This document shows, piece by piece, positions 55,134-61,577 of a stretch of DNA of 64,000 nucleotides. This DNA is from Protoeuglena noctilucae (taxonomy: Eukaryota), in contig OY253670.1 in NCBI GenBank assembly GCA_958009085.1, positions 1,054,001-1,118,000 on the forward strand, written 5' to 3'. The translations under genes were made by a program, and so were the position numbers. Position 1 is the stretch's first letter; the number at the start of each line of letters is the position of its first letter. The notes beneath the pieces are model-generated. The model had not been told where the DNA came from. It worked only from the letters and a program-made list of their open reading frames with translations, and searched no databases.

Positions 55134-55497
55134 GGTCGGCGCTCCTCCTCGTATCCGGCCGAGAATCAAACGTGACGGCGCTAGGCAGGTCCGCCTGGGG
55201 CGCTGCCGGGCGAGCCAGCGAGCTGCGCTGGGCTTTCTGCTCGACGAGTATTTCGCCGGGGCTCGTGCTAACCGCAGCGCCGGAGACCCCGATGAACAGC
55301 GATGAGCCGCCGCAACCGCACGGGTGGGGTCGCTGGGCCCCGAAACGAGGTCTGACTGGCGCCAGTACGAGTGTTGACCACGAACCTCGGCCCGGAATCG
55401 CGGAAATCGCGCGTCGGCATCCCCATCGGAAGCGCGGTGCTGGCCGCGGCGCGCCCTCCGGGGCGAGGCAGCAGGCTGTCCGACGCAACACGTCTCG

Positions 55498-58400
55498 ATG
55501 GGGTGCGCCCCGAGTGCTCACGCGGCAGAGGCTGTCGAGCCGCACGACCGGGCTGTGATTGAGACACAACTTCCTCAGAAGACGGGGAGCGTCAAGGGCG
55601 CTGGAACCGGGGGTCTTGGGGGCCAGAAGGACGACGACATGGGCCAGCGGCGAAAGCAGGCACAGGCGAGAGGGAGTTTCCGCACGAGGGACCTGGCGTT
55701 GGAAAGTCTTGGGCCACAGGTATCGTTTTGGAAGCGCTTCTGGCGTGCAGGGTTACGGGGACGTCATTTCCTCCCCCACGTTCACGACGGGCAGAGGGCA
55801 GAGCCATGTGTCCTGGCCACCTCCTCCCAAGCCAAAGCTCCCTGCAGCCCGAGCGCAACCTAACCCAGTACCGGTGAAAGACCCGGTCGTGCCTCCCCCC
55901 GAAACTCCCTTACCCTCTCGTCAGAGCCGCGAGGCGCCCCTTGCCAAGGTGGGCGCTCACCTCATTGGTGCCCTGCCCCTCCAGAAGAGCGCCAGTCACG
56001 TGCCGAGTCCGAATCTTGCACCGTCATTGCAGAGGCGGGCGTCCTTCAAGGATGTCCGTTCCGATGCCAACGACCTCAGCCGTCCGCAAGGGGTGCTGAC
56101 GCACGAGGCCATGCTGCTCACCATGCCCTTCCAGCTCCAAGTCGCCGCTACGGAGTCCCGCAAAGCAGAGATCGTCTCCATCGTAGATGCCGTCATGGCC
56201 CTCGTGGACAGGGTGAGCCGATGACACGCGACGTCAGGAGCCCCCGCCAAGGCCCTTCGTAGTCGCTAGCCAAGCACCGCAACCGTTGCCCGCTTGCCCC
56301 CCTTCTCGCAGCACTTCAACAATTGGAACCCCGACAGCGAGATCTCCGCCATCAACTCCCCGCTTCGGCAGACCCCCGCCAGAGTGTCCCCTGAGCTGGG
56401 GGCGCTCCTGGACCTGGCAGAGTCGGCTGTTCGCCTCACGTCGGGTCGCTTCGACCCCACCGTGCTGCCCCTGCTCGAGGTGTGGCGGGAGTCGCTGCTC
56501 AAGGACGGCCGCGAGCCCCACCGGAGCGAGCTGCAGCGGCTGTCCCCCGCGGTGGGATGGACGCGGAACGTGCAGCTCGTGCGGGACCGGGGGCGCGTGG
56601 AGGCCGTCGAGCTCGAGTGCGAGGAGTGCCGGATAGACCTGGGTGGCGTCGCCAAGGGCCACGCGCTGGACCTGCTGGGGGAGGCCCTGGTCGCGAAGGG
56701 CTTCGTGAACTGGGTGATAGAGTGGGGCGGGGACGTGCTGGCGCGCGGAGTGCATCCGCAGGGCCGCCCCTGGCGCACGTGCCTGGCGCGGCCGCCGCCC
56801 ACCGAGAGTCTCTTCACGTTGTGGACGAAAGACTTGGTGGAAGACTGCCTCAAGAGCCAGGGCGTCTTAGCTGGCGTGGACTTGCACGAATGCGCGGCCG
56901 CCACCTCCGGGGACTTCTTCCAGGTGTACAAGTTCGGATACCACCACATCGTGGACGGGGAGAGCCTCTCGCTGATGCGGGCGGGGCAGGAGGGGGTGGC
57001 GTGCGTCACGGTGGTGGCGGCGAGCGCGGCGCGGGCGGACGCGTTCGCCACGGCGGCGATGGCCTGTGCGTCGGTGGAGGCGGCGGCCGGCATGCTCGAC
57101 AGGCTCGTGGCCGAGGGGCACGTGGGGGGTTTCTGCCTTCTGTCCCGCGCCAGGGCTCCCGTGATGCGTGGCGGCATGTTCCATGCGGCTGCCTCTGCGG
57201 CCGACCCCGGCCCCAGCAGCGGGGTCTTTGCGTCACTGCCCGCCACTGGACCTCCGGATGAGGCGCAGGCGTGGCTGCAGCTGGAACAGGCCTCGAGCCG
57301 CCTCCTGCCGCCCCGATCCGTGCTGGTGGAGACGGAAGGGACAGCAGTGGAGGTGCGGCGGCGGTGGGGAGTGTTCATGTGCCCATGTTCCGTCGTAGCT
57401 ACATGTTGTCATGAGGGCCGAGCGTGGCATGGCCAATCTGAGTCAGTGTGGCTGCCCACGCAGGTTCCGACCCTCGCAACGGTGTCTCTCCGCCCGCTGA
57501 TGGTGTCTTTCGTGGCCCCGCACACCCTGCCATTGCGACAAGGGTCCAAGGCGCGGGTGACGATCTCCGACGGCCGGGGCCAAGGCAGGGTTGCAACGGT
57601 CAGGGTCGTCGACACGGTGTGTGTGTGTGTGTGTGTGTGTGACCATCGTATCAATTGCCAAGAGTCGCTGGTCTCTGCATTTATCACCTTGTCTCGACCG
57701 TCGCCGTGTCTGCAGCTCGAGGCACCCGGGCGGTGCGTGGTGGCCCTGTGCGGGGTGGACGACGTGGAGGGCGCCGGCTTAGAGACCGACAGCCTGCCCG
57801 ACAGGCTCAAGGCAGCGCTGCGTGATGCCCCCGCGCAAATATGGTGAGCCGGTTGTTGCCGGGTGAAGCTTCCATGGGGTCTGCGCCCCTGGGTCACCCC
57901 ACCCTGCCGCTCTCTCGCACCCTGCAGCATCGTGACCTTCACTGGAGCGGACAGCACGCCGTACGCAGTCACGGCCTCGTCCGTCCGAATGCACACGGGG
58001 TCGTGCTTCGTTTTCAACTTGCAGCTCAACTCTCGGGCCGGCATGGCGGCAGAAGAGTTGCAAGGGCGGCAGTTCCGCTTGCATTACCTCAGCGGGGCGC
58101 ACGCGGAGCTCGCCAAACACCATTCGGTGGACCCAGTGGTGGGCAGCTGTGGCACGCTGGCCTCACATCGTGCACATATAGTGGAGGCTGTGGTGGCATA
58201 CCCTCTGTGTCTGACACAGCCCACCACAACCGTGCTCGCAGTTCGACGAGGGAGTATATCGTGATTTGATGGGCCGTGAGCCACCTAGCCAGGGCTCAGA
58301 CGGCGCCCCCTGCATCGACGCAGGTGTGTGCGCGGATGGGCGCCAAGGCACCGCTTGCCCTGATCTGGATACACGGCATGGCCACTCGCCTCTTCTGCTT

Positions 58401-58557
58401 CGCAGGCGTTACATGCGTGGTGCGGCTGCTGGGCAGCGGCACGGCTGGGGATCACTTGGTGCTTGTCTGCGGCCTTGACCTCGTTGCGATACTCGATGGC
58501 GACTTCCTGGACGATCGCCCGCTCATCTACCGCGACCGGGAGTTTGCCGTCGCATGA
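55498..58557 (+). CDS. ApbE (FAD:protein FMN transferase) fused to flavin-reductase-like domain(s), with N-terminal MGCxxS motif
   Basis: Exon 1 55498-55665 (MGCAPS...) joins 55751 in frame through a GC-AG intron. ApbE motifs: HFNNWNPDSEISAIN, GRFDPTVLPL, IDLGGVAKGHALD, EWGGD, ATSGDF, HHIVD, ADAFATA. C-terminal Flavin_Reduct-like motifs: TVSLRPLMVSF, LKAALR..ICIVT..PYAVTASSV, GDHLVLV, PLIYRDREF. Confidence 0.85.
57617..57640 (+). repeat. (GT)12 microsatellite starting at an intron donor
   Basis: gacacg|gtgtgtgtgtgtgtgtgtgtgtgt read directly. Confidence 0.92.
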
Positions 58558-58896: not shown

Positions 58897-61577
58897 TTAG
58901 CACTTGAACTCGAGCTGCATGTTGTTTTCGGGCGGGAGGCCCACGCACGCGCGGAGGGTGTTCTCGAGCATGGCGCGCTGCTTGGCCAGGGCGTTCACGA
59001 CGGGCTTGCCCTGGGGCACCAGGGGCGCCTTGGTCAGGTACGACAGGAGGACGGCGATGGGGTGGAAGTGGTGGAAGGCAGAGTCGCTGTCCTGCTTGAT
59101 CTGCAGAAACGGCCATGTGAAGGAAGGGTCGGGGACAAGGATAGGCTAGATAGAGTAGGCGGGGCATCGCTTTCCACTAAGCGTTGCTTGTTGCGGCACC
59201 AGCGGGCGCCTTCGGACAGACGGTGCGGTCCCGGCATGCGCGCAAGCCTGGCGCCCCACCTGGATGCGGGTGATGAGCTCGGCGAGGATGACGAGGTCGA
59301 GGATGATGGGCGCGGCAAGGAGCGAGTCCTCGCACGTGTTGTGGATGGCGAGCGTGTTGCGGCCGCCCATGAAGATCTCCGACGTGTACTCGTCCATCGC
59401 ACGCTTCGAGTCGCCCACGTACGGCACGTACTTGATCACCACCAGGTGGTCGGGGTGCTCGCCGGCCTTGTACAGGATCTGCGAGACGCAAGGTGGGCGG
59501 GCGCCAGGTGATGGGCGGGAGCGAGGCGGGCGGGAGCGACGTGGCAGGCCAGGTTGGTAGTAGCGTAGCGAGTATCACCTGGTTGCTCTGCACCATGTCG
59601 TCGACGACGTTCGACTTGGAGATCTCCTTCGAGCGGAAGGTCTGGGGGGCCGAGAGGTTGAGGCCGTCGTTGTTGCCGAGGTGGTTGTACGAGACGATCG
59701 ACACGGGCTTGATGCCGGCGCCGACCAGGAAGTCCACGAGCACCGACTTGAGCTGCGGGAGGGGCCGGGAGAGCCTCGCGTTGTCGTTGCGCACAGGCGG
59801 GCGAGGGCCGTGGGATGCGGTACGGGGTGGGCCGGCCCTACGGTATGGTGGCACGCGCCCGGCGCACGCCTGCTCGCCTTGGTCTGGCCCGACTTGAAGT
59901 CATCGCCGCCGATGAGGACGTTCTTGCGCTCGGCGAGTTCGATGAGCCCGGGGACGAAGGTGTTCTGGGGCGCGCCGTTGATGAAGGGGCAGCCCTCGTT
60001 GATGGCCGCGACCGCGTAGAGCGTGGAGGGCGCCACCTCGCTCTCGCCCCGCTCGATCGCCGCAAGGAGGTTATCTGCCGTGTCGTTCAGGCCGTCCAGG
60101 ACGTCCGCGTACCGCTCCGTGTTGGCGGTCCACAGCACGATGACCTTGTCGAGCGCGTTGGCCTCCTTGAAGGCGCGGATGTGCTCCTGCACCTGCGCCA
60201 CCTGCTCCACCTTGGTGCCCCGCAGCACGTTGTCGGCGCGGGGGCCCTGGTTGGCCGCGACGAAGTTCTGGTCGAAGATGGCGGGCAGCGGCACCATGTC
60301 GCGCATGTGCGGCACCAGCTGCTTCTGCAGTTCCCAGTCCAGCACCAGCGCCCGCTCCATCGCCTCCGCCAGGTTGGCCTTCGAGATGTCCCAGCCGCCC
60401 ACCACCAGGTCGTTCGGGCTCACCATCGGCAGGAGCGCCTGCGGGCGACCGACGTCGCACGCGATGATCGGAGGGCCGCCGCGGGCCCTCGAGGCGCGCG
60501 GACGCGCACGCGACGGCCAACAAACCCTTCCGCACCTTGAGCGGCGCCCACGCCTCCTCCCCGTTGAAGTTGCCCAGGCGGACCGTCGACGCCTGCGTGA
60601 TGGATCCCCAGTAGTTGGGCTTCCGCAGGCCGTCCTTGGTCATCCACGTGATCCCCTCCCGATTGGCGATGATGCCGCCCGTGATCGTGCTGCCGTTGTT
60701 CCCGCCCCAGCCCACCAGCATCACCCTGCGGGGGCAGCGTGGGAGGCGATCCATCGTCGCGGAGGGAGCCGGCGCAATTGAAAGGCCGGAAAGCTGATCG
60801 ACAGAGGCGCCCGAAACGCCCGCCCGGGCTCGCGCTTGGGGCCCAGTCGGCCGGCGAGGGCCCATGTGGGAGTCCGAGGGGGGCAGGCCGGGCCAGGGCA
60901 GCGAGAGGATCCCCGAGCCCCGTCGCCACAAATCCAGGGCGGCTCGCCCCACCCGAACGCATCCCGCGAACCCCGGGCCGTGCCCCGCGCGCGGCGGTGC
61001 CCGCTGGTTGTGGACAAGCCTGGACCCCACGGCGCTCGGCCGAACGGCGGGTCCGCGACGGGGCCGCGGTGGGCCAAACGCGCACAGGATACCAAAATGC
61101 GCACCCGCGACACCCCGCGCGCCCGCCCAGCCCGGCCCCGGCGCTGGGAGGGGCTCGGGCCCCGCGCCCGCGGCTCCGGCGGGCGCCGCGGGGGTCGCGG
61201 GGTGTCGCGAATGGTCTACCCGAGGCTACGGAGGAAAGGCACGCGGCGGGGCGCGCCCCTCCGCCGGCGGGGGCGCAGCCCCCGGTCGAGAGTCGGGCGC
61301 GGGGCCCCCCGGCCGGTCGAAATCGGCGCGGGATGAACTAGGGATGGGCCGCGGCCACCGCCGTCGGGAGGTTCGCGGAGGCGGGGACGGGCGCTTACCC
61401 GAGCTTGGGGAGCGCAGTCCCCGTCCGGAACTGGAAGGTCTGCTGGACCGGCTTGACGATAATGCCACCATCGGCCGCCTGCTCGATCCGCGTCGTGTCG
61501 TACTTGAACGTAGACTCGATGAATTCTCCCCCGTACACCACATTGGGGCTCTCGACGCGGAACCGGTCGACGTGCAT
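58897..61577 (-). CDS. INO1: Myo-inositol-1-phosphate synthase
   Basis: [86 protein letters not shown] and MQLEFKC*. ATG 61577 follows an acceptor-like CAG, so a 5' UTR intron is possible. Confidence 0.97.

Follow-up and report, generated by a model that had tools for sequence, protein, structure and literature searches.

Flavin mononucleotide (FMN) is attached covalently to proteins by ApbE, the FAD:protein FMN transferase (FAD, flavin adenine dinucleotide), at the published acceptor motif D-x-x-[S/T]-G-A-[S/T], whose final residue binds the FMN, and the catalytic set of the Vibrio cholerae enzyme comprises Ser241, His257 and Asp285, of which His257 is the general base (PMC12052999). According to the available text of the same source and of a Trypanosoma brucei preprint, ApbE domains of eukaryotes are called rare, flavinylation in them is documented experimentally only for the kinetoplastid fumarate reductase (FRD), and the eukaryotic ApbE fusions cited are of the FRD type only, those of kinetoplastids together with predicted ones of Symbiodinium and Nannochloropsis. 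In the T. brucei FRDg, the segment DGRSSAS, with its essential Ser9, precedes the ApbE domain, flavinylation in cis is at least 5 times more efficient than in trans, and the replacement D316A within ADALATA abolishes the activity (preprint). For the engineered "flavin-tag" or "flavin-fixing" approach (Tong et al. 2021, as related in PMC12052999), FMN attachment requires only a short ApbE motif within a flexible terminal segment, and a terminus was the best place for it. The present analysis concerns the gene located on the plus strand at positions 55498-58557 of the window, i.e., the whole analysed stretch of 64,000 nt from the alga Protoeuglena noctilucae (assembly GCA_958009085.1, contig OY253670.1, positions 1,054,001-1,118,000), to which all coordinates refer. 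This gene belongs to a second eukaryotic ApbE fusion family, with a different redox module, in which the ApbE domain is followed by two predicted split barrels of the flavin-reductase fold. An earlier note on this DNA, made from the sequence alone, had not recognised such an architecture as characterised, and the literature search, with most subscription journals and paper supplements outside its scope, found indeed no paper describing an ApbE and flavin-reductase fusion; nor is the Flavin_Reduct family PF01613 mentioned in the available text of a bacterial survey.

Domain architecture of the fusion protein

The earlier note had read at this place one spliced gene encoding an MGCAPS start, a Pro-rich linker, a full ApbE domain with intact motifs and a C-terminal flavin-reductase-like sequence. 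The first three elements were borne out: the ATG at 55498 opens MGCAPS, the joined RNA contigs give nine exons translated in an unbroken frame into 770 amino acids (aa), 22 Pro are found within the first 170 residues, and all five ApbE motifs were located in the spliced protein, starting at residues 291 (DLGGVAKG), 319 (EWGGD), 379 (ATSGD), 393 (HHIVD) and 424 (ADAFATA). The public gene model of the locus, P0002 (723 aa), scores 166 bits against PF02424 (cut-off 25.6), with the large exon by itself reaching E 1.1e-46, and all 13 matches of a phmmer search in PDB sequences (E up to 0.01) are ApbE/Ftp chains, among them the V. cholerae ApbE 6nxi at 8.1e-15. In the AlphaFold model of P0002, with a mean predicted local distance difference test (pLDDT) of 84.5 and a predicted template modelling score (pTM) of 0.67, the ApbE fold (VIA) corresponds to that of the Treponema pallidum Ftp 4xdt, with Z 35.5, a root-mean-square deviation (rmsd) of 2.5 and 314 of 330 residues aligned, and to 6nxi with Z 33.8. 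By a manual count on the PDB sequence alignment, Ser381, His394 and Asp425 (Ser334, His347 and Asp378 of P0002) align with the Ser241, His257 and Asp285 of the V. cholerae enzyme, the numbering offset being constant (16) at all three positions. Asp425 lies within ADAFATA, the counterpart of the T. brucei ADALATA, and in the family alignments A1 and A2 each of the three catalytic positions is either invariant or conserved at 90% or more. By its sequence score, fold and catalytic residues, the domain is a member of the ApbE family, and the conservation of these residues suggests that it is catalytically intact.

The fourth element was likewise borne out, with a correction. The GDH and PLIY motifs (the latter at residue 759) are present, and the fold and the relatives speak for a flavin reductase at the C-terminus, but the score of P0002 against PF01613 is 18.2 bits (E 0.0029), under the cut-off of 27, in a match that covers the profile positions 3-150 of 153. 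The flavin-reductase identity is nevertheless secured, because 16 of the 21 long relatives of the protein reach the PF01613 cut-off and because of the fold matches: the model of P0002 residues 548-723 gives Z 17.4 with 4l82, 17.4 with 2qck, 17.0 with ThdF (9fd5), 16.9 with FerA (4xj2) and 15.8 with HpaC (2d37), SgcE6 being also among the matches, within a range of Z 15-17.4 and 149-157 residues aligned. By its model, the C-terminal barrel is therefore assigned to the flavin-reductase fold class, with a sequence under the Pfam threshold. In ThdF, according to the available description, the His of the conserved GDH motif touches the nicotinamide of NADH (the reduced nicotinamide adenine dinucleotide); the corresponding D689 and H690 of P0002 are conserved at 90% or more in the alignment A1.

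Between the two domains, the earlier note had missed a degenerate second barrel. The middle region, of which about 100 residues form confident beta structure in the AlphaFold model, was aligned by hhalign with the C-terminal domain at a probability of 99.2% (E 9.8e-20, 53 sequences) and still at 94.6% (E 7e-8) with 38 sequences, after removal of the 15 in which the first barrel is visible to Pfam, vs. a probability of 0.2% in the control alignment of ApbE with the barrel. At the GDH position the middle barrel reads PGR, the GDH being lost. Both barrels are visible to Pfam, as two stretches, in the relatives P0020, P0048 and P0054. The solved flavin-reductase relatives, as described for ThdF, are intertwined homodimers, and by analogy the tandem barrels may form a homodimer-like unit within one chain, i.e., a pseudo-dimer. 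No FAD_binding_2 fumarate-reductase or cytochrome-b5-reductase module was found in the Pfam scan of P0002 (E up to 0.1), which returned only ApbE and Flavin_Reduct, in agreement with the earlier note. The N-terminal and C-terminal exons scanned singly against Pfam gave nothing at E up to 1, the pieces being too short, and the ESM Atlas gave no usable match.

Candidate FMN acceptor motif and predicted N-terminal anchor

Upstream of the ApbE domain, and likewise missed by the earlier note, the family alignment contains a motif of the acceptor type, [DE]-x-x-[ST]-x-A-[ST], kept amid otherwise unconserved disordered sequence, with such examples as DTPSTASY, DSMSMASF, DGVSAASF, ETQTSASL and DSTSSASY, and with the forms DVISSPTF, DVATSPTF and DVASMPTW in the clade of the window protein. 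The motif counts were made on the 48 members in which 40 or more residues precede ApbE. In this N-terminal part, the relaxed pattern [DE]xx[STA]x[AP][ST] occurs in 37, vs. 0.146 per sequence expected from shuffles, and the strict pattern D..[ST][GSA]A[ST] in 13. The DVISSPT of the window protein agrees with the published acceptor motif at D60, S63 and T66 (positions 1, 4 and 7); at position 5 it has Ser, which the kinetoplastid (s/g) form also allows, and at position 6 Pro, where most of the family has Ala. In the AlphaFold model of P0002 the motif is a strand (residues 14-16) within a block of pLDDT 63 between flanks of 31-38, and in that of the Gloeochaete protein P0045 it is a strand (residues 57-59) within a block of pLDDT 83. 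The motif thus forms, as modelled independently in two proteins, a docked strand of three residues, a local peak of confidence within the disordered tail. By its conservation and these models, the motif gives evidence to the idea of the earlier note of a self-contained covalent-flavin system, which appears strengthened.

Further strict motifs were observed in some relatives: P0013 has a second one, DAVTGAT, before ApbE (residue 108), and DTLTSAT is situated within the middle barrel region of P0016 (residue 635) and P0017 (residue 599). These may possibly be second flavinylation sites.

The acylation consensus calls for Met-Gly at the start, Cys as the third residue and a small residue as the sixth. 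The MGCAPS start conforms to it and is predicted, from the sequence only, to be a signal of the type of Gly2 myristoylation plus Cys3 palmitoylation, and an MGC or MGNC start is present in 31 of the 53 family members, so that acylation at Gly2 and Cys3 and a membrane location may be inferred for the protein. The N-terminus is laid out as about 55 disordered residues, the motif and then the Pro-rich linker of about 70 residues, with residues 22-86 of P0002 having a pLDDT of <50 in the AlphaFold model.

Gene model and transcript

The features of the gene are collected in Table 1. The expression and splicing data are assembled RNA contigs from four runs within a single study of marine metatranscriptomes; they are 100% identical to the window, which has a GC content of 66.6% and zero N. 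Eight introns were established, seven of them GT..AG and the first GC..AG. A single RNA contig of 3946 nt (run X1) extends from exon 2 through the stop codon to beyond 58800; therefore, the ApbE and reductase exons are on one assembled RNA, and the gene is expressed. The joint of the first intron was found in two runs, X2 (shorter side of 26 letters) and X4 (66 letters), and the same junction is used by P0002, which is letter-for-letter equal to the spliced protein from residue 57 onward.

The start of P0002 is placed at an internal Met (residue 48 of the 770-aa model), so that this entry lacks the MGC acylation signal found in most relatives. MGCAPS is favoured as the true start because the RNA reaches 55427, there is no ATG in 55427-55497, the open frame upstream has no Met, and most family members have the MGC or MGNC start mentioned above. 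An alternative first intron (GT donor 55720, acceptor 55801), which is in frame and skips the motif, was rejected: the RNA contigs and P0002 use 55666-55750, and the residues that would be skipped are the conserved motif. A contig of run X3 joining 56509 to 57754 (1244 nt skipped, CG..GG, a side of 21 and loose ends unlike the window) is probably chimeric or from a related organism.

Table 1. Features of the ApbE and flavin-reductase fusion gene (window coordinates; residues of the 770-aa protein)
Feature	Position	Strand	Residues	Basis or remark
Candidate FMN acceptor motif DVISSPT	55760-55780	+	60-66	aligns with the family motif; Thr66 as putative acceptor
ApbE (FAD:protein FMN transferase) domain	56078-57205	+	138-480	Pfam PF02424, fold match
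Catalytic residues	56906-56908, 56945-56947, 57038-57040	+	Ser381, His394, Asp425	alignment with V. cholerae ApbE
Middle domain, predicted degenerate split barrel (exons 4-6)	57260-57757	+	about 499-594	hhalign
C-terminal flavin-reductase (HpaC/ThdF-type) split barrel, predicted live barrel (exons 6-9)	57758-58554	+	595-770	fold, relatives
GDH motif of the live barrel	58447-58455	+	735-737	spliced protein
Exon 1	55498-55665	+		56 aa, starts MGCAPS; first in-frame ATG after the upstream stop; RNA contig 55427-55666
Intron 1	55666-55750	+		85 nt, GC..AG; MGC exon and motif exon spliced in frame
Exon 2	55751-55948	+		motif and Pro-rich disordered linker; RNA contigs
Intron 2	55949-56032	+		GT..AG
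Exon 3	56033-56212	+		last part of the linker, beginning of the ApbE fold; RNA contigs
Intron 3	56213-56311	+		GT..AG; interrupts the ApbE domain
Exon 4	56312-57352	+		347 aa: most of ApbE, inter-domain linker, start of the middle barrel
Intron 4	57353-57463	+		GT..AG
Exon 5	57464-57616	+		RNA contigs
Intron 5	57617-57715	+		GT..AG; border inferred from contig pieces, repeat skipped in mapping
Exon 6	57716-57843	+		RNA contigs
Intron 6	57844-57927	+		GT..AG
Exon 7	57928-58138	+		RNA contigs
Intron 7	58139-58241	+		GT..AG
Exon 8	58242-58323	+		RNA contigs
Intron 8	58324-58405	+		GT..AG
Exon 9	58406-58557	+		stop codon 58555-58557

The repeat in intron 5 is a (GT)n dinucleotide microsatellite (57617-57642) that sits right at the splice donor. 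Another database entry of the locus, P0046, is a prokaryote-style open reading frame call of 517 aa (window 56270-57847), 98% identical over the ApbE part, in which the large exon is read through into intron 4; it illustrates how automatic gene calling can run on into an intron. On the minus strand, the convergent neighbour at 58897-60639 is a spliced gene of myo-inositol-1-phosphate synthase (NAD_binding_5, E 4.9e-82; Inos-1-P_synth, E 2.7e-18). The 3946-nt contig of run X1 extends 1555 nt past 58800, so that the 3' ends of both genes may abut or overlap in the assembled RNA.

Family and distribution

A word-based search brought up the 21 long relatives, 19 of which have both Pfam domains in the precomputed annotation, and in the further 47 proteins scanned both domains were found at E up to 0.001 in 35. 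The profile search in 1.84 billion representatives gave 39,555 matches at E up to 0.001. Most of these are single-domain ApbE proteins; 30 of the best 150 representative clusters match the profile from end to end in a single stretch. Thus, the fusion family comprises about 30 or more clusters at 50% identity; the architecture, described in the earlier note for this alga, recurs in an algal family and is not peculiar to this species. The layout of the window protein (type A) is the MGC start, the motif, ApbE, the degenerate barrel and the live barrel. Named members are known from each of the three lineages with primary plastids, namely from the green algae Pedinophyceae sp. YPF-701 and Cymbomonas tetramitiformis, the red algae Pyropia yezoensis, Porphyridium aerugineum and Timspurckia oligopyrenoides and the glaucophyte Gloeochaete wittrockiana, and also from the euglenid Eutreptiella gymnastica. 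A second layout of the family, without the MGC start, was observed in P0051-P0054, P0061 and P0062, the named members being C. tetramitiformis and E. gymnastica.

The database names of the members are "hypothetical protein", "FAD:protein FMN transferase" and "ApbE/flavin reductase (DIM6/NTAB)", i.e., some of them already bear the fusion label from automatic annotation. In a FastTree phylogeny of 170 ApbE domains, from which nothing finer was drawn in view of long branches and compositional warnings, the window protein is in a branch of 56 rows (54 fusions and 2 others) with 99% local support. A second word-based search, made with the ApbE region, returned only 7 proteins, with no kinetoplastid or other ApbE fusions among them.

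Proposed mechanism and alternative readings

Taken together, the architecture is best read as that of a dually acylated protein that would flavinylate its own tail and reduce the tethered FMN with NAD(P)H (NADH or its phosphate), a reading to which we assign a probability of about 0.5. Myristate and palmitate at Gly2 and Cys3 would anchor the protein to the cytosolic face of a membrane, and the ApbE domain, using FAD and Mg2+, would attach FMN in cis, by a phosphoester bond, to Thr66 in the tail of the same protein. The two barrels would pack as an intramolecular copy of the homodimer of the free flavin reductases, with the live barrel oxidising NAD(P)H and reducing the tethered FMN, which, on a long flexible arm beside the lipid anchor, could then pass electrons to an acceptor at the cytosolic membrane face. 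What is shown comprises the structure and expression of the gene, the domains with their folds, the conserved catalytic residues, the conservation of the motif and the spread of the family; the acylation, the flavinylation and its site, the use of NAD(P)H, the pseudo-dimer and the acceptor are inferences. A more specific version is tentative and rather doubtful: the FMN on the disordered "swinging arm" might carry electrons from the barrel pseudo-dimer to the membrane acceptor, as a eukaryotic, cytosol-side counterpart of the bacterial flavinylated conduits, and the Pro-for-Ala replacement might mark a co-evolved ApbE specificity.

Several points weigh against self-flavinylation as proposed, or against the gene model under it. 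Pro stands in the place of the consensus Ala in the window protein and its three nearest relatives (P0003, P0005 and P0007), being kept throughout this clade of four, and the change of Ala to Val reduces flavinylation (PMC12052999). The usual Gly is missing from DVISSPT, which has Ser instead, like the kinetoplastid FRD. Eleven of the 48 members fail even the relaxed pattern, several of them still aligning as E-T-x-L-x-A-S-L. To these are added the PF01613 score under the cut-off, the fact that a single study supplied all the RNA evidence, as assembled contigs, and the joint of the first intron, seen in one good contig and one short-sided contig.

Some of the same facts would be expected if ApbE acted in trans on another algal protein, DVISSPT being a docking or regulatory element and the reductase domains serving that system or supplying reduced flavin. 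This is considered unlikely, even though the Pro of the window's clade and the 11 members without the relaxed motif fit it, the T. brucei ApbE can work in trans too (preprint), and other ApbE targets are possible elsewhere in the genome of the organism, the last being a further point against cis action. What argues against it is that the motif is kept in position and sequence over the green, red and glaucophyte members and is placed upstream of ApbE as in the cis case proven for T. brucei (preprint), and that the classical targets, NqrB/C, RnfG and NosR, belong to bacterial membrane complexes (PMC12052999).

An equally small chance is given to a reading in which the tail is flavinylated as proposed, and the FMN folds back into the live barrel as a permanently fixed prosthetic group, in a natural counterpart of the engineered "flavin-fixing". 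The free-flavin reductase would thereby become a true flavoprotein, with a soluble or membrane substrate that it reduces directly. This reading is favoured by the engineering work in which ApbE was used to fix FMN covalently in FMN proteins (PMC12052999) and by the long linkers, predicted to be disordered, on both sides of the motif, through which the flavin could reach any domain. Nothing specific speaks against it, and it differs from self-flavinylation with a mobile FMN only in the position of the flavin during turnover.

That the ApbE domain is mainly a metal-dependent FAD pyrophosphatase or flavin-trafficking module, as is described for the T. pallidum Ftp, which would supply the neighbouring reductase with FMN made from FAD and attach none covalently, appears very improbable: the best structural matches are indeed T. 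pallidum Ftp entries titled "bifunctional FMN transferase/FAD pyrophosphatase", but conservation extends to the transferase residues, the general-base His among them, and such a function leaves the conserved acceptor-type motif unexplained. An annotation or assembly artefact, i.e., two adjacent genes or a non-functional relic, is hardly credible, since, against the different N-terminus of P0002 and the fact that contigs are no strict proof of a single transcript, there stand one RNA contig over exons 2-9 in an unbroken frame and the recurrence of the layout in the long relatives and the further proteins scanned, including transcriptome-derived ones from several named species.

If self-flavinylation by the protein is true, the gene would represent a compact system of a single polypeptide, with the anchor, acceptor tag, transferase and reductase, and thereby a natural template for flavin-tag engineering in the eukaryotic cytosol. 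It would also be a new membrane-associated NAD(P)H oxidoreductase for the redox physiology of algae and a natural test of the limits of the ApbE motif drift, given the Pro in place of Ala.

Comparison with known systems

The nearest likeness is to the kinetoplastid NADH-dependent fumarate reductases (T. brucei FRDg and Leptomonas pyrrhocoris FRD), which are eukaryotic, have ApbE on the cytosol side and carry the acceptor motif upstream of it on the same chain; DVISSPT corresponds to their DGRSSAS, and the Asp of AD(A/L)(F/L)ATA is conserved. Flavinylation in cis is suggested because ApbE is fused, as in the kinetoplastid FRD, to an NAD(P)H-linked redox module. However, the algal protein is without the FAD_binding_2 and cytochrome-b5-reductase domains and is, therefore, not an enzyme of the kinetoplastid FRD type; in their place it has the tandem Flavin_Reduct barrels, and its motif is internal (residue 60), behind the predicted MGC acylation signal, with Pro for Ala in the window's clade.

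With the bacterial ApbE/Ftp proteins (6nxi, 4xdt and the Listeria FmnB 7esa) it shares the fold (Z 33-35.5, rmsd 2.3-2.6 over about 300 residues) and the catalytic Ser/His/Asp, at an identity of 19-22% to Ftp, V. cholerae ApbE and FmnB in the structural alignments. The bacterial proteins are separate lipoproteins, about 300-350 aa long and typically located in the periplasm, with NqrB/C, RnfG and similar proteins as their targets in trans (PMC12052999), whereas the algal ApbE is an internal domain of a 770-aa eukaryotic protein encoded by an intron-containing gene and having no signal peptide.

The split-barrel fold and the GDH motif are those of the NAD(P)H:flavin oxidoreductases of the HpaC/ThdF/SgcE6/FerA type, the reductase components of two-component monooxygenases and ferric reductases. 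These are small homodimers, as described for ThdF, that release or exchange free flavin; unlike them, the algal protein has two tandem barrels in one chain, one of them degenerate, joined to a flavin transferase and to a candidate site for a covalently bound flavin. Finally, the short ApbE motif in a flexible segment resembles the engineered flavin-tag, which is artificial and is supplied with ApbE in trans, whereas in the algal gene the arrangement is natural and the transferase is present in cis.

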